From a phage, in the sequence record PQ400058.1: 38,682 bases of DNA; one strand, 5' to 3'. Below are positions 1 to 38,682 of the stretch, in pieces; the stretch's first letter is position 1, and the number at the start of each line of letters is the position of its first letter. The position numbers and the translations under genes were made by a program. Below the pieces are notes generated by a model. That model had not been told where the DNA came from. It did no database searches and was given only the letters and a program-made list of their open reading frames with translations.

Positions 1-1967
1 TGAATGGTATCTTCCAGCACTTGTTGGCGGAAGCCGAACTCTTTGGACCCGTAAGCCAGCGTCATGACTGAACGCTTAGTCACGCTGCGAGTAACACCAT
101 AAGCCAGCCACTGACCAGCCAGCGTCTTGGTGCCCAGTTTGACTTTCTCAGAGATTTCACCAGTGTTCTCATCGGTCACGGTAACTACTTCGTTGTCGGT
201 CCCGTTGATTACATCTTCTTGCAGAATCACGTTGACTTTCTTAGCGACAATCCCGTAGATGTCCTGAACTGTTTCGCTAGGCAGCAGGTTAACAGCGCGA
301 CCACCTATCTCATCAAGGAGCATCGCGGAGAAGTGTTGAATACCAGAGCAAGACCCATCGAACGCCAGCGGAAGAGAGCAGTTGTAGCTTAAGCCGTGGT
401 GCTGTACCCCAGCGTACTCAAAGCAGAACGCAAGGAAGCAGAACGGAGAATCTTGCTCAGCCCACCAAGTGTTCTCCAGTGGAGACTTAGCGCAAGCCAT
501 GATGTTCTCGTGGTTGTCCTCAATGAACTTTATGCGCTCAGGGAACGGAACCTTATCGACACCCGCACAGTTTGCACCGTGGATTTTCAGCCAGTAGTAA
601 CCTTCCTTGCCGATTGGTTTACCTTTCGCCAGAGTCAGCAGGCCCTTGGTCATATCGTTACCTTGCGGGTTGAACATTGACACAGCGTAAACACGACCGC
701 GCCAGTCCATGTTGTAAGGGAACCAGATGGCCTTATGGTTAGCGAACTTATTGGCTTGCTCAAGCATGAACTCAAGGCTGATACGGCGAGACTTGCGAGC
801 CTTGTCCTTGCGGTACACAGCGGCAGCGGCACGTTTCCATGCGGTGAGAGCCTCAGGATTCGTGTCGATGTCTTCCGGTTTCATCGGGAGTTCTTCACGC
901 TCAATCGCTGGGATGTCCTCGACCGGGCAGTGCTTCCACTTGGTGATGACGTTGGCGACCGCTAGGACTTTCTTGTTGATTTTCCATGCGGTGTTTTGCG
1001 CAATGTTAATCGCCTTGTACACCTCAGGCATGTAAACGTCTTCGTAGCGCATCAGTGCCTTCTTACTGTGAGTGCGCACCAGCGCCAGAGGACGACGACC
1101 GTTAGCCCAATAGCCGCCACCAGTAATACCAGTCCAAGGCTTAGGAGGAACCACGCAAGGTTGGAACATCGGAGAGATACCAGCCAGCGCACCTGCACGG
1201 GTTGCGATAGCCTCAGCGTATTCCGGTGCGAGTTCGATAGTCTCAGAGTCCTGACCAACTACGCCAGCATTTTGACGATGTAAGCTAACCATTCCGGTTG
1301 ACTCAATGAGCATCTCAATGCAGCGAACACCTACATGAATGGAGTCTTCCTTGTGCCATGAAGACCACGCCTCGCCACCTAGTAGACCCTTAGAGAGCAT
1401 ATCCGCTTCGACAACCTGCATGAATGCTTTCTTGTAGACGTGACCTACTCGCTTGTTGAGTTGTTCCTCAACGTTTTTCTTGAAGTGCTTAGCTTCAAGG
1501 TCACGGATTCGACCAAAGCGCGCCTCGTCCTCAATAGCTCGACCGATTGCACTTGCTACAGCCTGAACGGTTGTATTGTCTACGCTCGTGAGGCAAGCCA
1601 GAGTGGTCTTAATGGTGATGTACGCTACAGCTTCCGGCTTGATTTCTTGCAGGAACTGGAAGGCTGTCGGGCGTTTGCCGCGCTTAGCTTTCACTTCCTC
1701 GAACCAATCGTTGATGCGTGCAATCATCTTAGGGAGCAGGGTAGTAATGAGAGGCTTAGCGGCAGCGTTATCCGCAACCTCACCAGCTTTAAGTTGACGC
1801 TCAAACATCTTGCGGAAGCGTGCTTCGCCCATCTCGTAAGACTCATGCTCAAGGGCCAACTGTTCGCGAGCTAAACGCTCACCGTAATGGTCAGCCAGAG
1901 TATTGAACGGAATAGCAGCCAGTTCGATGTCAGAGAAGTCGTTCTTAGCGATGTTAATCGTGTTCAT
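1..1967 (-). CDS. 1: T7-type single-subunit RNA polymerase (gene 1), N-terminal ~656 codons; truncated by window start, continues at window end
   Basis: ATG at 1967 with GAGG RBS; own translation MNTINIAKNDFSDIELAAIPFNTLADHYGERLAREQ...; frame open to position 1 (...SVMTLAYGSKEFGFRQQVLEDTIQ). Not in ORF track because no stop in window. Confidence 0.93.
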   Translation of the reverse strand, partial: MNTINIAKNDFSDIELAAIPFNTLADHYGERLAREQLALEHESYEMGEARFRKMFERQLKAGEVADNAAAKPLITTLLPKMIARINDWFEEVKAKRGKRPTAFQFLQEIKPEAVAYITIKTTLACLTSVDNTTVQAVASAIGRAIEDEARFGRIRDLEAKHFKKNVEEQLNKRVGHVYKKAFMQVVEADMLSKGLLGGEAWSSWHKEDSIHVGVRCIEMLIESTGMVSLHRQNAGVVGQDSETIELAPEYAEAIATRAGALAGISPMFQPCVVPPKPWTGITGGGYWANGRRPLALVRTHSKKALMRYEDVYMPEVYKAINIAQNTAWKINKKVLAVANVITKWKHCPVEDIPAIEREELPMKPEDIDTNPEALTAWKRAAAAVYRKDKARKSRRISLEFMLEQANKFANHKAIWFPYNMDWRGRVYAVSMFNPQGNDMTKGLLTLAKGKPIGKEGYYWLKIHGANCAGVDKVPFPERIKFIEDNHENIMACAKSPLENTWWAEQDSPFCFLAFCFEYAGVQHHGLSYNCSLPLAFDGSCSGIQHFSAMLLDEIGGRAVNLLPSETVQDIYGIVAKKVNVILQEDVINGTDNEVVTVTDENTGEISEKVKLGTKTLAGQWLAYGVTRSVTKRSVMTLAYGSKEFGFRQQVLEDTI

Positions 1968-5446: not shown

Positions 5447-5469
5447 TCTCCCTATAGTGAGTCGTATTA
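5447..5469 (-). promoter_or_regulatory. T7 RNAP promoter phiOR-like
   Basis: Minus strand TAATACGACTCACTATAGGGAGA (exact consensus). Confidence 0.9.
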
Positions 5470-7320: not shown

Positions 7321-7764
7321 TTACTTGGTTTCCTGCTTACGTTGCAGTTCACGAATAGTATCCTGTAACGCACGAATCCATGCGTCACCCTTCTGGGTCA
7401 CTGCGAGAATACGCTTAGCATCTCGGTCGTCAAGTTCGGCTCGACCATCAGGCTCGAATCCACACTGACCATCGGAGGCTCCGGTAGTTTTGACTCTGAC
7501 GCGCAGCCGCTTATTGTCGCTACGCAAATCAGAAATAATCCTATCAGTGCTCCCTTCCAGCGCGGCAAGGTCTTCTTGATACTTAGCCGATATTTCATTG
7601 AGCGCTCTTTGAGTGCTCGCCGTAGCCTCAACTCTCTTAACGTACTCATTGAGTACCTCCTGTTTCCATTTAGCGTCCATTGAGTCTGACCCTAGATGCC
7701 ATCCTAATCCGAATAGCATCCCAGCGAGAACCCAAGGGATTAGCTTACGTAAAAATTCCAGCAT
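7321..7764 (-). CDS. 18.5: Rz-like i-spanin (gp18.5)
   Basis: Track ORF trimmed to ATG 7764 (MLEFLRKLIPWVLAGMLFGLGWHLG...), GGGAGG RBS 5 nt upstream. Confidence 0.85.
   Translation of the reverse strand: MLEFLRKLIPWVLAGMLFGLGWHLGSDSMDAKWKQEVLNEYVKRVEATASTQRALNEISAKYQEDLAALEGSTDRIISDLRSDNKRLRVRVKTTGASDGQCGFEPDGRAELDDRDAKRILAVTQKGDAWIRALQDTIRELQRKQETK
7398..7649 (-). CDS. 18.7: Rz1-like o-spanin lipoprotein (gp18.7), nested in the +1 frame of 18.5
   Basis: Track ORF 83 aa MSTLRELRLRRALKERS...LICVATISGCASES (lipobox-like); lies entirely within 18.5. Confidence 0.8.
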   Translation of the reverse strand: MSTLRELRLRRALKERSMKYRLSIKKTLPRWKGALIGLFLICVATISGCASESKLPEPPMVSVDSSLMVEPNLTTEMLSVFSQ

Positions 7765-7799
7765 AATGCCTCCCGTTAACTTGCAGATTTCACGTGGGA

Positions 7800-7858
7800 T
7801 CATCTCGTGTAGACAATGACATCCATAAAGACCACTATAGGTAGTGGCCTTGAGTATA
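7800..7858 (-). promoter_or_regulatory. RNase III-type site (R18.5-like)
   Basis: CCATAAAGACCACTATAGGTAGTGGCCTTGAG element between gene 18 and 18.5. Confidence 0.4.
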
Positions 7859-8128
7859 TCACTGTAATGTGTAAATATCGTCATCTGTAAGACCGTTATC
7901 ACCGACTTTCTCTTTGTACTCTTCAAGAGCACCAGCAAGTCCACCCAAGATGTGAACATCCGGCTGCAACTTACCAATCTGGAACTTGTGTCGGTCTAAC
8001 AGTTTATTGATGGCGTTATAGAGTTGTGGAGAACGACGCTCAGGGTCCGAAAGGTCCGCAAGCATACGCTGAGCCATCGCAGTGTCCAACATCTCTAAGA
8101 ACGTAATTAGGCTCTTATCCTTTTCCAT
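7859..8128 (-). CDS. 18: Terminase small subunit / DNA maturation protein (gp18)
   Basis: ATG 8128 (MEKDKSLITFLEMLDTAMAQRM...), AGGAG 8 nt upstream; 89 aa. Confidence 0.88.
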   Translation of the reverse strand: MEKDKSLITFLEMLDTAMAQRMLADLSDPERRSPQLYNAINKLLDRHKFQIGKLQPDVHILGGLAGALEEYKEKVGDNGLTDDDIYTLQ

Positions 8129-8133
8129 ATACA

Positions 8134-8337
8134 TCACTCCTTATTGGCTTTCTTCCAGTCAATCATCTTATCGACTACCTTGGCACCAATCTGAACCACT
8201 GTGTAGGCGATAGCGGCAATATAGAACCACTCATTAAGACTCAGCCCGAAGAAAAGCCTCGCAGCACCATCAGCCACACCTGTTCCAACAATAGGTGCAG
8301 CCTTGACTAACTCGTTGTTAAAATCCAAAGACAGCAT
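8134..8337 (-). CDS. 17.5: Holin (gp17.5)
   Basis: Track ORF 67 aa MLSLDFNNELVKAAPIVGTGVADGAARLFFGLSLNEWFYIAAIAYTVVQIGAKVV... with hydrophobic segments. Confidence 0.88.
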   Translation of the reverse strand: MLSLDFNNELVKAAPIVGTGVADGAARLFFGLSLNEWFYIAAIAYTVVQIGAKVVDKMIDWKKANKE

Positions 8338-8390
8338 GTATCCTCCTTATAAGGTCCATCCGTGGACTGAATGGCTTTCCTAGGTTGTAA

Positions 8391-8915
8391 TTATTCCTCA
8401 GGCTTCTCAGGCCAGTCATAGAAAGGCAGTACACTCAGGTCTACTTTGTATACAGCAAGACGGTAAATTCGCCACGCGTTTAGGAGACCTTCTAATCCAT
8501 CCTCCCCAAGTGCCATGAAGTCAGCATACTGCTCAATCTTCTTGGAGGCCATAGAGACTAGACTAGCCTTCTGGTTCTCAAAGTATCGCGGATACCAAGT
8601 TAGCTTCTCACCATCCCACCACCACTGCATCATATTGTAACGAGAGTATTCAGCTGGGATTTCCTCAAGTTCAACAACACCAGCAGAACCCTGAACGGCT
8701 AACTCCTGAACATCCTGTTCACACTGAATTACCGAACCGTCTTTGGCATAGACAAGTTTCCATGTATCCTCACGGAATGTCTTACGTAGTTCATACCAGT
8801 CATTCCCATTCTCGTCCTTTGAGAAGCCAACTCCGTGGTCCAGAAGGTCTGCATTCTCTTTGGTGCGCTCTGGAATATAGTTTACGAAGTTCTTATAGTG
8901 GCGTAAAGTCTTCAT
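8391..8915 (-). CDS. Tail fibre assembly (Tfa-like) chaperone, 174 aa; not present in T7
   Basis: ATG 8915 with GGGGGAGGG RBS 16 nt after the gp17 stop; C-terminus ...LLNAWRIYRLAVYKVDLSVLPFYDWPEKPEE resembles the lambda Tfa C-terminus (...[29 protein letters not shown]) as recalled. Confidence 0.7.
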   Translation of the reverse strand: MKTLRHYKNFVNYIPERTKENADLLDHGVGFSKDENGNDWYELRKTFREDTWKLVYAKDGSVIQCEQDVQELAVQGSAGVVELEEIPAEYSRYNMMQWWWDGEKLTWYPRYFENQKASLVSMASKKIEQYADFMALGEDGLEGLLNAWRIYRLAVYKVDLSVLPFYDWPEKPEE

Positions 8916-8931
8916 GTTGTACCCTCCCCCT

Positions 8932-10608
8932 TTAGTAAATATTAAAGCGTTGACCATCGTTGCGTACATACTGCATAACACGCCACTGGCAACCATCTAC
9001 CGCACCATCAGCGTTACCGTTTGTGATTCCTGTGATCACCTTACCGCCACCATCTTCTATGCCGTAAGCATTCCACAGTTGCGACCAGTTAACTCCACCC
9101 ATCGCAATGTGGTTAACGGTATTTGCAACAAGCCAGCCAGCTAGATGACCATGACCACCCCATACAGAGCCTGCAATGTTTCCGTCAGTGGACATTGCGG
9201 CACCACCTGCCTTAATCGTAGTTGGGAATTGAACCTCGCCATTTGGGTTTAGCCAAATGTCATAAGATGTCGCTTGAGATGCTTCCGGTTTCCACCGGAT
9301 TAGGCCGTTGCCGTTCGTAGAACCACCTCGAACCCATCCAATTTCTAACCCTGCATCGTAGAAACTCCAACGAGTGTTACAGACCCATCCACCTTGGGTC
9401 AAATCACCCGGACCATATGCCACCGTCTTAACGGCAGTATTGGCCTGATTAGTAACACCTAGCGGTTTGTTGAATCCTTCTACCTGCAAACCATTGTAGC
9501 AATGCATGAAGTCCCCGAAGTGCATCTCCCACGTAGCCGAATCATTAGCTTTACTTTGAACCTGAAATGGAACATGCCAGTCCCCTCTATGTGGGTGCTT
9601 AATGGCCCAAAACGTATTTGATACATATTGTCCCTCAGCAGGGTTATACTCATGTACCATCTGCCCCATAGAGCCAGCTTCGGCAGTTGCCCTCAGGGTT
9701 GAAGCACGATTAGCAATAAGTTCACCGTTAAACTTAGCAGTAGCCGCCCACGAAACAACGTGGTCTTGGCTTACTTCCTCAATGGCACCTGCAAGTGCAT
9801 TCCAGTTACCAAGTTTGTCTGCCTCCAACTTAGCGCGGTCTGCTTGCTGTTCTGCCGAATGGGCAGAGTTAGCGGATGCCGTGGCATAGTTCTCAGCGTT
9901 TACCTCAGATTGATGCGCAGCAGTAGCAGAGTTACCAGCAGATGTAGCGTATTGACCAGCCGTATTCTTGAACTGCTCGGCTTCGTCTCTGAAACCCTTG
10001 GTCTCATCACGCCACTGCTTCGTATTCGTAGCGTTAGTGCTGGACTCGTTCTTAAAGCCCTCCGCTTGATTTCTGAAAGTCTCAGCCTCATTGCGGAACT
10101 GTAGGGCCTCATTACGCGCCTGCCATGAGTTCTGGTTCATGGTCTTAAGTTGACCAAACGGAACAGCGTCACGGTCATCCACGGCGTTCGCTAGGTTCAC
10201 AATTCGACGACCACGGGCATCCAAGTGACCATCATTATTGACACCGATAGTATCCGCAGTGAGGTCACGGGCCTCTTCTGCTACGTGCATCGTTTGAATC
10301 TGAGCGACGTTAAGGTCATATGCACGGAGGATTGAACCATCCGTAAAGTCAACCAATCGGTCTGTCGTGGAGGTTACTCGACGTAACTCAATGGTCGTGT
10401 AGCCATCAGCTGTACCCCAAGCCTTGGTCAGTGAGATGGTAGTGCGAGTAGCAAAGCGGTAGTCTGTATTAATAGTAAGGACCTTTCGGTCTACGCCAAT
10501 AAGGGTTACTACTACGAACTTACGGGCTAGATACTCAAACGGGATATTAAAATCACGAGTGGAGCCGTCTAACTGGTAAGTCAAAACGGTTTTAATTACG
10601 TTAGCCAT
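8932..10608 (-). CDS. 17: Tail fibre protein gp17, 558 aa: T7-like N-terminal attachment and coiled-coil region, non-T7 distal receptor-binding region
   Basis: Track ORF MANVIKTVLTYQLDGSTRDFNIPFEYLARKF...; matches recalled T7 gp17 to about residue 265 then diverges (…HPHRGDWH…GGHGHLAGW…QRFNIY). Confidence 0.9.
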   Translation of the reverse strand: MANVIKTVLTYQLDGSTRDFNIPFEYLARKFVVVTLIGVDRKVLTINTDYRFATRTTISLTKAWGTADGYTTIELRRVTSTTDRLVDFTDGSILRAYDLNVAQIQTMHVAEEARDLTADTIGVNNDGHLDARGRRIVNLANAVDDRDAVPFGQLKTMNQNSWQARNEALQFRNEAETFRNQAEGFKNESSTNATNTKQWRDETKGFRDEAEQFKNTAGQYATSAGNSATAAHQSEVNAENYATASANSAHSAEQQADRAKLEADKLGNWNALAGAIEEVSQDHVVSWAATAKFNGELIANRASTLRATAEAGSMGQMVHEYNPAEGQYVSNTFWAIKHPHRGDWHVPFQVQSKANDSATWEMHFGDFMHCYNGLQVEGFNKPLGVTNQANTAVKTVAYGPGDLTQGGWVCNTRWSFYDAGLEIGWVRGGSTNGNGLIRWKPEASQATSYDIWLNPNGEVQFPTTIKAGGAAMSTDGNIAGSVWGGHGHLAGWLVANTVNHIAMGGVNWSQLWNAYGIEDGGGKVITGITNGNADGAVDGCQWRVMQYVRNDGQRFNIY

Positions 10609-10660
10609 TTGACCTCCTTAAAGTAAATCTAATAGACTACAGGGAGAAGATTCTTTCGTC

Positions 10661-10683
10661 TCTCCCTATAGTGAGTCGTATTA
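10661..10683 (-). promoter_or_regulatory. T7 RNAP promoter phi17
   Basis: Minus strand TAATACGACTCACTATAGGGAGA; its TAA is the stop codon of gene 16. Confidence 0.9.
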
Positions 10684-13600
10684 TTTCCTAGGTGTCTCCT
10701 TGATGTGGATACCGTTGGCCTCATAAATTTTCATAATTAGTTGCTGCGTGATAGGGTCGTTCGGAACAATCTCACGCATGGTATTAAACATCCCTGTACG
10801 AAACTCCATCTCGGTAGCCTTGTTAGGCGCTTTCAGTAGCGATACAGCATTAAGTGCCGTACCACCGACCTGCCCTGCGAACCCCAAAGCAGGAATCTGA
10901 TCACCTAGAGCACCACTAATCATACCAGTCACTTGACGACCTGTTACCGCTTTTGTGCGATCGCGTTCTTCTGGTTGCTTCGGTAGTACCGTGGAGCGTG
11001 TGTACTTATAGGTATCATCACCAAACACACCAGCGATCATATCGTAGATGCTAAGTGGCGAACCTAAGTGTGAGCTACGGGAGATAGACGCATGAGCAAT
11101 CATCTTCGGGTCTAGTGCCATCTTAAGGTACTCCTTACGTTTGTCCTCAGGTAAGGCAGCGGCCTTTAGGTGCGCCTGTCCAACGAAGTAGCCACCAGCA
11201 AGCCCACAGGAAACAATGTGAGTTAACGCTTGGTCTAACGCACGGTTGTTCTTTGTGGCCTCATAGAAGCTACGGACAAATCGAGCATTAAGCGACTTGA
11301 TAACGAAGTTCTTAAATTGCATCACCATCTTTACGCCAGCACCATACGCAACGGAATCTTGAGAGGAAATCTTATGTGGTCGCATGATTGTCTCTCCAGC
11401 CACTTTGTCAGCAAGCCTCCACAAATCCATTGTGCGTGGGTCGTAGGTGAACGCCCTTTTGTCCTTGATTGTGAACTTACCGTTAGCATCACGAGTGGTG
11501 TGGTCCCGAAATAATTGCTTGATACCATTCCACTGCTCAGGACTGATTGAGGCAGACTTAAGATAATTTGCCTTACCAAACTTGGCACCAGTCCCTGATA
11601 GCACAGCACTTGCAATATCCCCTAGCACACCCTGACGGGCTGCGTCGATAATGTAGTTTGTTGTTCCATTAAGCATTACCGTCCATGGGGAGCGGGCTGC
11701 TAACTCCTGCGTCCCGAAACGAAGAGTACCAACCACATTAGCCAACACAGCGTTGGTGTCTGTAGACTCCCTAAGTCTGCGAATGTGATCTTCACGACTC
11801 GGACGGATTAGCTGGTCTAGTTCCTTCCCGAATACCATACTGTGGAGTTCTTTAATCTCAGAGGCTCGCATTGGTTTCCTACGGTTAACCCAGTCGTTAA
11901 TCATAGGGATTCCATGAGTCACCGCAGAGACATTACCTTTGATCAACATAGCACCTATCTCCGTGAAGTTCTGGAGAGGCATATAGAAGTTCTTAGCGAA
12001 GAACGTCAGGTCATTCAGAGAGCGTAAAGCTGTCCCTAAAGCACCTTCTGGGCTACGACGGGCGCGACCAGTTAGAATCTTCACTGTATCCTTAAGAGCT
12101 TCTACTTCGCCCTTCAACTTCCCGTTGCCTTCGGCCTGCTTACTCAGTGCCATAATTTCATCCTTGAGTTCCTTGGTAGTTTTACCAGAGCTACCCATGA
12201 TAGCAATATCGCCATTTACACGACGGTCATATGCTGGCATAAGGATGCGCTGGCTGAACACTCGAATGTCATCTACTGAGAACATAGAGCCATCTGGTAA
12301 CGTGATTGGTACATCGGTGTCAAAGAGGTTACGTGCTTCCAGAAAGTTATTGTTCTCGATACCAACAAGCCCCGTGATATTCTCATCAACAATAGAAGAC
12401 GCCGAGAACTGGTCTGTATGGGAGATACCATATGCCTTGTCCATAGCATACTTCCGGACCATTTCGTGTGTTACGTCTTTAGTTGACTTAAGCCCGTTGA
12501 CTTCCATCAGGTGCTCGTCGATACGTGCCTTAACTGGTGGACGCAGATAGTATGACGCAAGGGAGCTTTCAGCGATAGCCCTCTGGAAAGCCTCTCGACT
12601 CCCCAAACGTTGAATATGAAAATTCTTCAATTGGGTGTCATACACTCGCGGAATGTATGTACCTTTGTTGCGACTGTCGGGGAAGATACTAACCGCCTTT
12701 GAATTACCAAACACAGCAGGGTTTTCCATAAGTTCACGCTTGAGGTCATAGTGACCTTTAACGTGGCGCATCAGGTCTAGCTCTTTGGGAGACAAGTTGA
12801 CCTGCATTTCAGGATGTTCGATAGCAAGAGCAATTTTACGGTCGATGAACTCAACGGCCTCTGCTTTGCTCATCTTAGGCGCACCTACTGTGAACTCAGG
12901 GTCTTTCATGACTTCCTTCATCTTATCATAGTATAGGTTCCAATCGCGGTTATCGTTGGATGATAGCCTACTATGGATATCATCAGCGGTCGAGCCGAAC
13001 TTACCGTTAGACCCTGATTCCATACCAGTTGGAGAGCGCACTAGGTCACGCGCAATGGAGCGAACTCCCGTGTTCTCAGAGCGTAGTGTCTTAAGGCCAA
13101 TCTCAGTGAACCCACCTAAGGAGATACCTCTGGCTGAACGCTCAGGATTTATCGCCTCAAACTCACTTAGTGTCTGTGGGTTCAGTGGGTTAGTGTCACT
13201 GAGGATTTGACCTTGAGGGAGGACGACTGCACCTGGCTCGGTGTCCAATGGTGCGTAGTTAACCCCACTGTACTCTCGGTCGAATTTGGTACTGTCTGTG
13301 TTCATCTTAGACATGTCCACAGAGTTGGCGTTAAAGGCAGTCTCACGGGCTTCCATACGCATCAACGGTCCGACGAACTCGTTGTTAAACTCAGCCTCAG
13401 GTTTGCTACGCCTCAATCCAGCGGCTATAGTGTCACTGATTGCAGACATTCCTGCCCCAAACACAAGGCCACCTAGTACCGCACCAGTATAATTAGCGTC
13501 TCCACCAACTATAGACGTTCGCAACCCTTCTGAGGCCATGTTAATAGCTGCACTCTCAGCACCGACAACAAGAGCCTTATTGATTAACTTAAATCCCTTA

Positions 13601-33921: not shown

Positions 33922-34620
33922 TTAGAAGTCTCCGTCTGAGTCTTCTTCGTAAGAGCCTTCGTCGTCTTCGTCCCAGCTTTCTTCGTCGCGTGGTTTGCTC
34001 GCTTTGGCAGAACCAGAGGCAACATAGCCGTTCTCTTCAACTTCGTCAGCCCAATCGTCTTCACCACCACCAAAGGTAGCCAGTTCGACCAGCATTACGG
34101 ATTCCAGTTGCAGCTTAACGCTCGCACCTACAGCAGTGTTCCACTTGTACGGAACCAGAGAGTATTTGACTTTCAGTTTAGAGCCACCACCGATAATCGG
34201 AACGTCTTCCATCTTCTTACCTTTGGAGTCAACCACAACAAGATTGATGTGCTTGGTCTCTTTGGTCTTCTTGTCTTGGAAAGACGCGTAGCATTTGAAC
34301 TTAAAGGTAGTCGTACCGTCACCGTTATCGAAGAACGGCATGTCACCTTCATACGGTTTCAGCGGTTTCTTACCACGAGCTACCGCAGGCGGGTTCGCTT
34401 CGTATTCCTCAACGGCAGCAGCATAAGCCTCTTCGTGACACTTCACGATTTCATCGACCATGCGTTGGCAGCGCGGGTCTTTGTTGGGAATAGTCAGGTC
34501 AACTTTGTAGACACCGCGAGGGTTCCCAAAGCCACGCTCTTCGTTACCGTAGTCAGGCTTAGAGATGTAAGCGTAAGGTTCAGCAGTGCCCAGCGCAGAG
34601 GTGAAAATCTTCTTAGCCAT
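33922..34620 (-). CDS. 2.5: Single-stranded DNA-binding protein gp2.5
   Basis: ATG 34620 (MAKKIFTSALGTAEPYAYISKPDYGNEERGF...), acidic C-terminal tail ...EEDSDGDF; 232 aa. Confidence 0.93.
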   Translation of the reverse strand: MAKKIFTSALGTAEPYAYISKPDYGNEERGFGNPRGVYKVDLTIPNKDPRCQRMVDEIVKCHEEAYAAAVEEYEANPPAVARGKKPLKPYEGDMPFFDNGDGTTTFKFKCYASFQDKKTKETKHINLVVVDSKGKKMEDVPIIGGGSKLKVKYSLVPYKWNTAVGASVKLQLESVMLVELATFGGGEDDWADEVEENGYVASGSAKASKPRDEESWDEDDEGSYEEDSDGDF

Positions 34621-34665
34621 AATATTAATCTCCTTTAGGTTTCGTTTGTTTCTCAAAGGGAGTCT

Positions 34666-34685
34666 TCTCCCAATAGTGAGTCGTA

Positions 34686-34688
<3 letters not shown>
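34666..34688 (-). promoter_or_regulatory. T7 RNAP promoter phi2.5
   Basis: Minus strand TAATACGACTCACTATTGGGAGA; overlaps the gene 2 stop. Confidence 0.85.
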
Positions 34689-34993
<305 letters not shown>

Positions 34994-35004
<11 letters not shown>

Positions 35005-35533
35005 AGCACTTATCCTTATGTTTCTCATACAGTTCACCATAGAATCCAGCTTTCGCCATGTCTTTCTCTAAGTAAGCCAGTTCTGACTTCTTACCAGCGC
35101 GTAGGCGGTACTTAAGGATGTTCCCTAAGCAATATCCTTTGAACTGCTCACGAGTCATTGAACGGGCAATCACTTCGATAGCCTCAATGTCGTCGAACAG
35201 CATGTAATGGGAAGGCTTAGTGACACCTTCAATTGACTCAGCGGAAGGCTGGTCATCTGTCGGAGTTACCTCAAGTTTATTCAGATGAGGCTTACGCGGG
35301 TCCATCGCTCGGATTTCACCTAAGGTTATCTTTTGATCATTGTTTGCGGGGCAGAGGTGGCAAGGGACATTTGAGCAGAGCATCCCGCAGCCATTCAAAT
35401 CATCCGGGCGACCATCGTTATTGTCTACCAACTTCATGATCATCTCTTGTTCACGTTCGGTCATACTGTTAGCTCCTTTATTACAGGTGTGTGGATAACG
35501 GTCGTCTTTCTCTAAGCAAGCTATGCATCCCAT
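34994..35533 (-). CDS. 1.7: gp1.7 nucleotide kinase
   Basis: Track ORF 179 aa [31 protein letters not shown]...; GGAGG RBS; the N-terminal extension I recall for T7 gp1.7 is not present. Confidence 0.85.
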
Positions 35534-35975: not shown

Positions 35976-36995
35976 TTACATCTTCTCTTGAGGGTTGTCC
36001 TCGGTGCCACGGAAGCAGGTGAAGGAGGGGTGTCTGAGACTCCCATCGTTAGTTACCTCCATAAATCCAATCTGGCAAGCCCAGCCATTATAGTAGTCCT
36101 CGCCATGTTCTTTAACGTTAGCTGTAAATTCATCCATTAAGGCGCGAGAGATGTTATTGGCATCGACAAGACGACCAGTCTCAAGAAGCACCTTGAATCC
36201 AATTACCTTACCTTCGTTAGCAAGTCCTTCTGTTCCCCAGTTTACACCATTAATGATTCCGTCAGCTTCCTCAAGAGGCTTAAGTTTCCACCAGCCGGAC
36301 TTCTTACCGCGCTTGTAGATGCACATCGGGTCTTTCACAATGAGACCCTCATGTCCTTCTTCACGCTTCTTCTCGTACAGTTGCTGTAGTTCTACCATAT
36401 CGTAGACCTCGTAAGACTCAGCCGCTTGCCATTCGATTTCAGGGAAGTATTCCTGTAGCAGAGGCAGCATGTTCTTAACGTGTTCCTGCATGAGCAACGT
36501 CATGACATCACAGTCTTCCCCAGACTCCACGATGTGCAGAGGGAGGATAGCGTACAGTCGGACACTCAGATGTTTGGTATCCAACGCGAACTCAACCTTG
36601 GACCCCTTGAGTGGTGGTACACCGCCAACGTCGAACTCAAAGTTATTCTTGTTGAGCCACTTGGTACGCAGTAGGCCGGACCCTGTGTTAAAGTCTACGC
36701 CCTTGACCATTAGTTCCCCATCGAGCATAAAGCCATCCTTGTAGAAACAACGGTCATCGTTAAGCAGACGCTTCCAGCGAACATCAAACCCGTTTAAGTG
36801 CTCCAGTGCCGGAATCGTTTTAGATACACGAGAGAGCCAGCAACTGTTAGCTGTATTGTCTACGCAGATGTTACCGCGCACACCATCGTACTTAATGTCA
36901 GCGATAAGATACCCAGCGTTATCCAGAGCTTTCTTAATGGCAGACTCTACGAAAGATACTGCCTTGTATGGTGAAGTCTTAAAGTTAATAATCAT
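35976..36995 (-). CDS. 1.3: ATP-dependent DNA ligase gp1.3
   Basis: Track ORF 339 aa MIINFKTSPYKAVSFVESAIKKALDNAGYLIADIKYDGVRGN... (KYDGVR ligase motif I). Confidence 0.93.
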   Translation of the reverse strand: MIINFKTSPYKAVSFVESAIKKALDNAGYLIADIKYDGVRGNICVDNTANSCWLSRVSKTIPALEHLNGFDVRWKRLLNDDRCFYKDGFMLDGELMVKGVDFNTGSGLLRTKWLNKNNFEFDVGGVPPLKGSKVEFALDTKHLSVRLYAILPLHIVESGEDCDVMTLLMQEHVKNMLPLLQEYFPEIEWQAAESYEVYDMVELQQLYEKKREEGHEGLIVKDPMCIYKRGKKSGWWKLKPLEEADGIINGVNWGTEGLANEGKVIGFKVLLETGRLVDANNISRALMDEFTANVKEHGEDYYNGWACQIGFMEVTNDGSLRHPSFTCFRGTEDNPQEKM

Positions 36996-38016: not shown

Positions 38017-38682
38017 TTACGCGAACGCGAAGTCTGACTTAAGGATGTCTTGGAGATTCAAGTTACCTTTAGCCGGAAGTGCTGGCATTTTGTCCAATTG
38101 AGACTCATGCAACTGGTCAGCGAACTGGTCATAGAAGTCAGCAAGTACATCACAAGACTCATAGGTGTCCACCATCGTTTCACGCACAGCTTTGAACAGG
38201 TTGGCAGCGTCAGCCGGAATGGTCCCGAAGGAGTCGTGAATCAGTGCAAACGATTCGATTCCATACTTCTCGTGTGCCCACACTACAGTCTTACGCAGAT
38301 GGCTACCGTCTTGGCTGTGTACAAAGTTAGGAGCGATGCCAGACTCCTGCTTGTGAGCGTCAATCTCGCTATCTTTGTTGGTGTTAATGGTCGGCTGTAA
38401 GCGGAACTGACCAAGGAACATCAGGTTCAAGCGAGTCTGAATTGGCTTCTTGTATTCCTGCCACACTGGGAACCCATCAGGAGTTACCCAATGCACAGCG
38501 CAACGCTTGCGAAGAATCTCGCCAGTCTTCTTATCTTTGACCTCAGCAGCCAGCAGCTTAGCGGCAGACTTGAGCCAGTTCATAGCCTCTACAGCGGCTA
38601 CTACAGTCACGCTCACAGCTTCCCAAATCAGTTTCGCCATGTAACCAGCAGCCTGATTCGGTTGAGTGAACATAATACCCTT
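38017..38682 (-). CDS. 1: T7-type RNA polymerase (gene 1), C-terminal 221 codons; 5' part runs off window end and resumes at window start
   Basis: Frame open from 38682 (KGIMFTQPNQAAGYMAKLIWE...) to stop TAA 38017-38019; ends ...LQDILKSDFAFA. Confidence 0.93.
   Translation of the reverse strand, partial: KGIMFTQPNQAAGYMAKLIWEAVSVTVVAAVEAMNWLKSAAKLLAAEVKDKKTGEILRKRCAVHWVTPDGFPVWQEYKKPIQTRLNLMFLGQFRLQPTINTNKDSEIDAHKQESGIAPNFVHSQDGSHLRKTVVWAHEKYGIESFALIHDSFGTIPADAANLFKAVRETMVDTYESCDVLADFYDQFADQLHESQLDKMPALPAKGNLNLQDILKSDFAFA

Follow-up and report, generated by a model that had tools for sequence, protein, structure and literature searches.

A predicted Mu U-type tail fibre chaperone gene between gene 17 and the holin gene of a T7-like phage

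Introduction

The chaperone Tfa of phage Mu has been described, in a passage of PMC9608196 that cites North et al. 2019, as a protein with a variable N-terminal domain which binds the end of the fibre and a conserved C-terminal domain which mediates trimerisation. Closer to the locus considered here are T7-like phages such as Kvp1, the gene 17.2 of which has been annotated as encoding a tail-fibre assembly protein since 2008, an annotation shared by LL2, Yanou, the Leclercia phages, SPLA4, and Bas103. The 2025 BASEL paper (PMC11990801) reports that the fibre of the Teseptimavirus Bas103 is followed by a "Mu-like Tfa", presents in the legend to its S7 Fig an AlphaFold-Multimer prediction of a hexameric fibre-Tfa complex like that of Mu for the same phage, and assigns an intramolecular chaperone to the fibre of Bas102. 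The literature searched contains no experiment on the need for Tfa in fibre folding or trimerisation in any T7-like phage, and no paper in it mentions Kvp1 together with tail fibre assembly. The Kvp1 paper itself lists 17-17.2 only as a divergent region, giving neither a function nor virion detection for gp17.2, and PMC12804162, on the engineering of T3 and T7 fibres, has nothing on Tfa.

The window and its promoters

The stretch of DNA analysed, referred to throughout as the window, comprises 38,682 nucleotides of the phage record PQ400058.1 and holds a T7-like genome on the minus strand, with about 90-93% nucleotide identity to T7, 13a, Cedecea phage Yanou, and Bas102/104. The genome is near-complete and circularly permuted, the cut falling in gene 1: the RNA polymerase reading frame starts at 1967 (-) and leaves the start of the window after 655 aa (1..1967 (-)), and its last ~220 aa are found at the opposite end (38017..38682 (-)). 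About seven codons and the reading frame are missing at this junction, and the ends of the window are not exactly joinable; the missing codons presumably correspond to QPAIDSG in T7. Within the Rz-like spanin gene (7321..7977 (-)) an 83-aa ORF lies in another frame (7398..7649 (-)), a nesting which is the usual i-spanin/o-spanin (18.5/18.7) layout of T7-like phages and is annotated likewise in Yanou.

The consensus of the T7 class III promoters has 11 matches in the window, all on the minus strand and seven of them perfect 23-mers, with none expected by chance; the polymerase of this phage presumably has T7 promoter specificity.

5' ends 4534, 5469, 10683, 18010, 22388, and 23427 (-): class III promoter matches
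5' ends 26359, 34688, 37432, 37933, and 38008 (-): the remaining class III promoter matches
10661..10683 (-): phi17, a T7-type class III promoter upstream of gene 17, a perfect 23-mer (TAATACGACTCACTATAGGGAGA)

Between gene 17 and the tfa gene described below there is no T7-type promoter, and since the next one after phi17 is found only at 5469..5447, tfa would be co-transcribed with gene 17 and is most likely expressed late, on gene 17 transcripts from phi17. A scan of 8000..10800 for sigma-70 promoters and intrinsic terminators returned counts at or below those expected from shuffled sequence, from which nothing was concluded.

A real gene between gene 17 and the holin gene

In T7, a gap of 58 nt without any gene separates the end of gene 17 (36285) from the start of gene 17.5 (36344), in line with the short intergenic gap named in the original prediction. 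The corresponding region of the window is occupied as follows.

10608..8932 (-): gene 17, 558 aa, stop codon TAA at 8934..8932
8916..8931 (-): spacer between gene 17 and tfa, 16 nt (AGGGGGAGGGTACAAC), in which GGAGG (8927..8923) precedes the ATG (8915..8913) by 7 nt
8915..8391 (-): tfa, 174 aa, stop codon at 8393..8391, C-terminal end ...LLNAWRIYRLAVYKVDLSVLPFYDWPEKPEE
8338..8390 (-): spacer between tfa and the holin gene, with homology to the T7 17/17.5 intergenic region from 8381 downstream
8134..8337 (-): gene 17.5, type II holin (Pfam Phage_holin_2_2, E 9e-36; phrog_920)

The 174-aa ORF with a strong ribosome-binding site (RBS), 16 nt past the gene 17 stop, had been read correctly from the sequence; it lies on the minus strand, directly downstream of gene 17 and co-oriented with it, an order found likewise throughout the homologous loci, in Mu, and in the 70-kb Salmonella myovirus PCSE1. 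The spacer on its other side carries a short inverted repeat (GTCCAcggaTGGAC) immediately upstream of the holin RBS.

In the mechanical list of ORFs the frame at this place is longer, 8391..8996, and open throughout; its ATG, at 8996, falls within gene 17, and the true product could on that account be a protein of 201 aa, the first part of which would be read, in a different frame, from the last part of gene 17. However, all 12 homologues start, and are annotated, at the equivalent of 8915, with M(K/G/R)(T/A)LRHYKNF behind an RBS, which identifies 8915 as the start of tfa. The RBS in the window precedes 8915 as well, and nothing in Mu U or the Pfam and PHROG profiles corresponds to the 27 extra residues. 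The longer product is exceedingly improbable and was rejected on the start positions of the homologues.

That the ORF is a real gene and more than a chance reading frame is concluded from its dN/dS of 0.02-0.08 against nine homologues (synonymous divergence 0.37-0.74) together with its score above the Pfam gathering cut-off, given below. Against the homologues of Kvp1 and SPLA4 the synonymous sites are saturated, and the protein is still ~80% identical to the tfa product. As tfa sits in a horizontally exchanged cassette, it might be thought a functionless passenger or a decaying remnant brought in by recombination of the fibre tip, but a dN/dS this low at a synonymous divergence reaching 0.74 led to the rejection of pseudogene or passenger status, and a length that stays within 174-176 aa across 12 phages from three genera, the strong RBS, and an intact, confidently predicted fold leave such a status with hardly any probability.

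Family and fold of the Tfa protein

8595..8915 (-): tfa residues 1-107, beta-rich N-terminal domain, predicted to bind the fibre, its model superposing on 5yvq_B
8391..8594 (-): tfa residues 108-174 and stop, two helices and a W-P-x-x-P end, the C-terminal domain of Caudo_TAP

An HMM search against Pfam Caudo_TAP (PF02413), the family to which the original prediction pointed, was positive, with a score of 38.7 bits (cut-off 22.1; E 1.3e-9) and residues 44-173 aligned to profile positions 3-131 of 131. The PHROG profile of the tail fiber assembly protein (phrog_136) covers residues 5-173 (E 7e-39), three further profiles (phrog_21546, phrog_24494, and phrog_11571) match residues 6-106, and no model in NCBIfam matches Tfa. 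The only solved relative is the Mu chaperone U (PDB 5yvq_B), to which residues 5-173 align over the full length at E 3.7e-11, and a BLASTP comparison with a Mu U protein gives 33% identity (E 4e-19). A word-indexed protein search with Tfa returned three clusters, all from the T7-like clade; an exhaustive phmmer search of 1.84 billion representative proteins was used instead and recovered 244 Tfa-related clusters at E<=1e-3. In an alignment of 66 family members, W40 and P169 are invariant, and Y151, W168, and P172 are conserved in at least 90%.

AlphaFold reached a pLDDT of 44, which is unusable, from four close sequences and of 96.2 from 66 family members. The latter model is beta-rich over residues 1-107, followed by helices at 109-135 and 142-156, and Foldseek against the PDB finds 5yvq_B as its sole significant match (E 4.1e-7, prob 1.00), with a TM-score of 0.81 (target-normalised) and an rmsd of 2.7 A over 106 columns. 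These values refer to the N-terminal domain of Mu Tfa, which binds the fibre and is the only part ordered in the 5yvq_B chain. The protein has the conserved C-terminal helical domain ending in an aromatic/W-P-x-x-P motif that is typical of Caudo_TAP, and its N-terminal domain has the TfaMu fold of the Mu U-type in the two-domain model of North et al. 2019.

The original prediction had likened the C-terminus to that of lambda-type Tfa, which holds at the level of the family and fails at that of the subtype. Lambda Tfa aligns only to residues 49-172 (29%, E 1e-9), thus covering just the conserved C-terminal part, and a comparison of lambda Stf with gp17 of the window found no similarity (best E 2.2). 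A specifically lambda-type Tfa was rejected on these grounds. By homology, the protein is classed as a Caudo_TAP tail-fibre assembly chaperone of the Mu U / P1 U / P2 G subtype.

Mosaic structure of the gene 17 fibre

The fibre gene in front of tfa is composed of three parts.

9778..10608 (-): gene 17 residues 1-277, T7-type tail-attachment domain and coiled-coil shaft (Pfam Phage_T7_tail, E 3e-72)
9214..9777 (-): gene 17 residues ~278-465, variable middle domain, lacking nucleotide similarity to T7
8932..9213 (-): gene 17 residues 466-558 and stop, the motif DGNIAGSVWGG...L..WL followed by a Tfa-associated terminal domain

Residues 1 to about 280 of gp17 are ~98% identical to T7 gp17, and the underlying nucleotide similarity (91.5% identity to T7 34502-35453) stops at window 9779. 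Homology to T7 resumes at 8381, 10 nt past the tfa stop and inside the 17/17.5 spacer of T7, window 8381..8001 matching T7 36299-36680 at 86% (blastn). The replaced cassette is delimited by these two points to 9778..8382, 1,397 bp standing in place of 845 bp of T7 and thus of the distal half of its gene 17, tip included. The middle domain resembles only those of Yanou, Bas103, and Bas67 (62-84% aa identity), falling below 25% against the other tfa-bearing phages. The last ~65 codons of gene 17 together with tfa (~9135..8391) form a terminal unit common to every tfa-bearing T7 relative, and the similarity of the window to these phages runs on downstream into the holin gene, as it does with T7.

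The last 62 aa of gp17, ending in QWRVMQYVRNDGQRFNIY, belong to a domain of the Mu S-type, matching the Mu U-type of the chaperone. The similarity is short, residues 498-550 aligning to Mu S 427-479 over 53 aa at 40% (BLASTP, 3e-8; phmmer against the PDB, 8ju3_A, E 1.2e-5). A longer stretch, gp17 419-554, is 36% identical to the fibre of PCSE1 (1e-18), in which the gene after the homologous fibre is a Tfa homologue. A Peptidase_S74 or other intramolecular-chaperone Pfam domain was not found in gp17 of the window, which has the Mu S-like end instead. The motif that opens the third part occurs in T7 gp17 too, at residues 434-453 (ATDGNIQGTKWGGKWL), T7 being a phage without tfa, and DGNIxGxxWGG..WL looks like a recurrent recombination joint between types of fibre tip.

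Co-occurrence of tfa with one type of fibre end

Carriers of tfa amount to 15 GenBank records from three genera of Studiervirinae (Teseptimavirus, Teetrevirus, and Berlinvirus), in most of which the gene is annotated as such, among ~800-950 phage records with nucleotide similarity to the backbone of the window. The relatives concerned are PGX1, ESh2, ESh6, ESh10, LL2, two Leclercia phages, Seera, Kvp1, SPLA4, Yanou, and Bas103. The view first taken, that such a gene is unusual for a T7 relative, is borne out in that it is a minority trait, but the trait has been annotated since 2008. The tfa gene behind gene 17 of a T7-like phage is confirmed here, but it has already been annotated or described in about a dozen relatives, and the understanding of T7-like phages is not changed by an arrangement that was made explicit in 2025 after years of annotation.

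In all 12 tfa-bearing T7-like phages the 62-aa fibre end is present and 71-85% identical, the Tfa homologues themselves being 80-97% identical; with the metagenome contig L016 (Logan SRR27143255_226163, 14-1489) counted alongside these 12 distinct phages, each of the 13 loci has both the fibre end and tfa. In L016, Tfa (P0004) is 49% and the fibre end 55% identical to those of the window, and the gene stands directly after a T7-type fibre with the shaft end GNWNALAEAIDRV... and another unrelated middle domain; the divergence of this cassette indicates a T7-associated Tfa clade that extends beyond what sequenced isolates reveal. Tip and Tfa identities are correlated (Spearman 0.68), a value expected from physical linkage alone and not evidence of co-evolution.

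The counterpart is Bas67 (Escherichia phage ErnstBeyeler, Berlinvirus; L004 1589-3463), which has a middle domain of the window type (72-84% aa; nucleotide homology over window 9825..9224) but goes over into a T7-type tip past the junction motif ...DGNIDGSLWGGNLYGWL and lacks tfa. Because Bas67 and T7 share parts of the fibre with the window but lack tfa, the Mu S-like end is the only element of the fibre that its presence follows. The need of this tip for a dedicated chaperone, which the original prediction had proposed, is thereby supported through co-occurrence, by the 13 loci on one side and Bas67 on the other.

The hosts of the tfa-bearing phages span seven genera (E. coli, Shigella, Cedecea, Leclercia, Serratia, Kluyvera, and Salmonella). 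Since Tfa and the fibre end are conserved across these hosts and the middle domains are unrelated, the comparison argues that host specificity probably lies mainly in the middle domain of gp17. According to the BASEL paper (PMC11990801), the Studiervirinae of the earlier collection, for which O-antigen is a block, need the K-12 LPS core, and Bas103 depends on O16. Bas67 belongs to these earlier Studiervirinae, its LPS dependence being the paper's general statement on the group. Bas67 and Bas103 share the middle domain and have different tips, only the latter with tfa, so that the tip/Tfa unit may have a part in receptor choice.

This last comparison also bears on whether Tfa is mainly a structural subunit of the fibre tip, an adhesin or co-receptor-binding protein retained in the virion, instead of or besides being an assembly factor. 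The presumed dependence of Bas67 on the K-12 LPS core and that of Bas103 on O16 fit such a role, and according to PMC9608196 mature Ur-lambda and Mu phages contain their chaperones, Mu Tfa thereby aiding receptor recognition. The pattern of conservation points the other way, with Tfa at 80-97% and the fibre end at 71-85% across seven host genera and the middle domain below 25% between groups, and for gp17.2 of Kvp1, which the virion analysis of that phage does not mention, there is no virion mass-spectrometry evidence. A mainly structural Tfa is unlikely, if far from negligible.

Proposed mechanism and further roles

The reading that best explains the locus, and which is very probably correct, is that of a Tfa chaperone carried in a fibre-tip cassette, co-transcribed late with gene 17 and acting in a Mu-like 3:3 assembly of the fibre. 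Late transcripts from phi17 would span both gene 17 and tfa, and the strong RBS of tfa would serve its translation. The N-terminal domain of Tfa (1-107) would then bind the Mu S-like C-terminal domain of one nascent gp17 chain, and the C-terminal helices (108-174) of three Tfa molecules would associate, joining three Tfa-fibre pairs. Through this 3:3 complex, trimerisation and folding of gp17 would be nucleated at the C-terminus and proceed in register toward the shaft. We infer the interaction of Tfa with gp17, the 3:3 stoichiometry, and the requirement for the chaperone from Mu and from the model of Bas103, the Tfa of which is 93% identical to that of the window.

A quite different function would be that of a transient cap, with Tfa masking the fibre tips of progeny phages and blocking their re-adsorption to debris or lysed cells. 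The cap concept for Alteromonas phage chaperones reportedly comes from Gonzalez-Serrano et al. 2023. The BASEL paper considers this concept possibly widespread in glycan-targeting phages (PMC11990801), and Bas103, the nearest characterised relative of the window, is O-antigen-dependent. Nothing specific in the sequence speaks for a cap, which is drawn by analogy with the Alteromonas chaperones, and as an account of this Tfa it is improbable.

Returning to the assembly chaperone, it is conceivable, though we would advance it only tentatively, that the 62-residue fibre end and Tfa make up a portable, host-independent folding cassette that is not coupled to receptor specificity, Tfa perhaps staying on the podovirus fibre and serving also as an adsorption-modulating cap. 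The suggestion derives from the conservation of end and Tfa (71-97%) over seven host genera next to unrelated middle domains. If true, such a cassette would let unrelated middle, receptor-binding domains plug onto the T7 fibre shaft.

For the re-targeting of a T7 scaffold by tip swap, a tip of this type must travel with its downstream tfa, and the natural breakpoints lie where the coiled-coil shaft ends (about codon 277), at the DGNIxGxxWGG..WL motif, and 10 nt past the tfa stop. Bas67, the window, and Bas103 form a trio which amounts to a natural experiment on the tip-plus-Tfa unit versus the middle domain in receptor choice.

Comparison with known systems

Gene 17.2 of the Kluyvera phage Kvp1 and its homologues (LL2 gp45, Leclercia 10164-302 gp42, Yanou ORF48, EmilieLinder/Bas103 Gp60, and those of PGX1, ESh2/6/10, Seera, and SPLA4) share with tfa of the window the site between genes 17 and 17.5 and a length of 174-176 aa. 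These loci resemble the window further in a Tfa of 80-97% aa identity, in the 62-aa fibre end upstream of it, and in being annotated mostly as 'tail fiber assembly protein'. In contrast to them, the window joins a T7-identical proximal fibre (98%, ~280 aa) to a middle domain of the Yanou/Bas103 type; the closest Tfa, that of PGX1 (97%), stands behind a different middle domain. This exact mosaic is absent from the phage collection compared.

The S and U genes of Mu are like the window in having a Tfa downstream of the fibre gene, with full-length homology of 33% and an N-terminal domain superposing at a TM-score of 0.81 (PDB 5YVQ; also 8JU3), and in the homologous C-terminal domain shared by Mu S and gp17 (40%, 53 aa). 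Mu, however, is a myovirus with an invertible S/U-S'/U' segment which governs host range, whereas the window has one fixed copy behind a podovirus fibre with the T7 attachment domain. Identity between Mu U and Tfa of the window is only about one third, and a Mu-like binding, stoichiometry, and retention on the virion would hold for the window by analogy. Lambda Tfa (orf-194) has Caudo_TAP, the C-terminal helical region, and the W-P-x-x-P end in common with Tfa of the window, but the N-terminal ~50 residues do not align, so that the likeness is one at family level only.

Among phages of the same backbone, the tips of T7 and Bas67 have no separate chaperone gene, unlike that of the window. The T7 gp17 tip (4A0T) and fibres with intramolecular chaperones are alternative solutions to the trimerisation of the distal fibre, found in sister phages built on the backbone that here carries a fibre tip and its Tfa.
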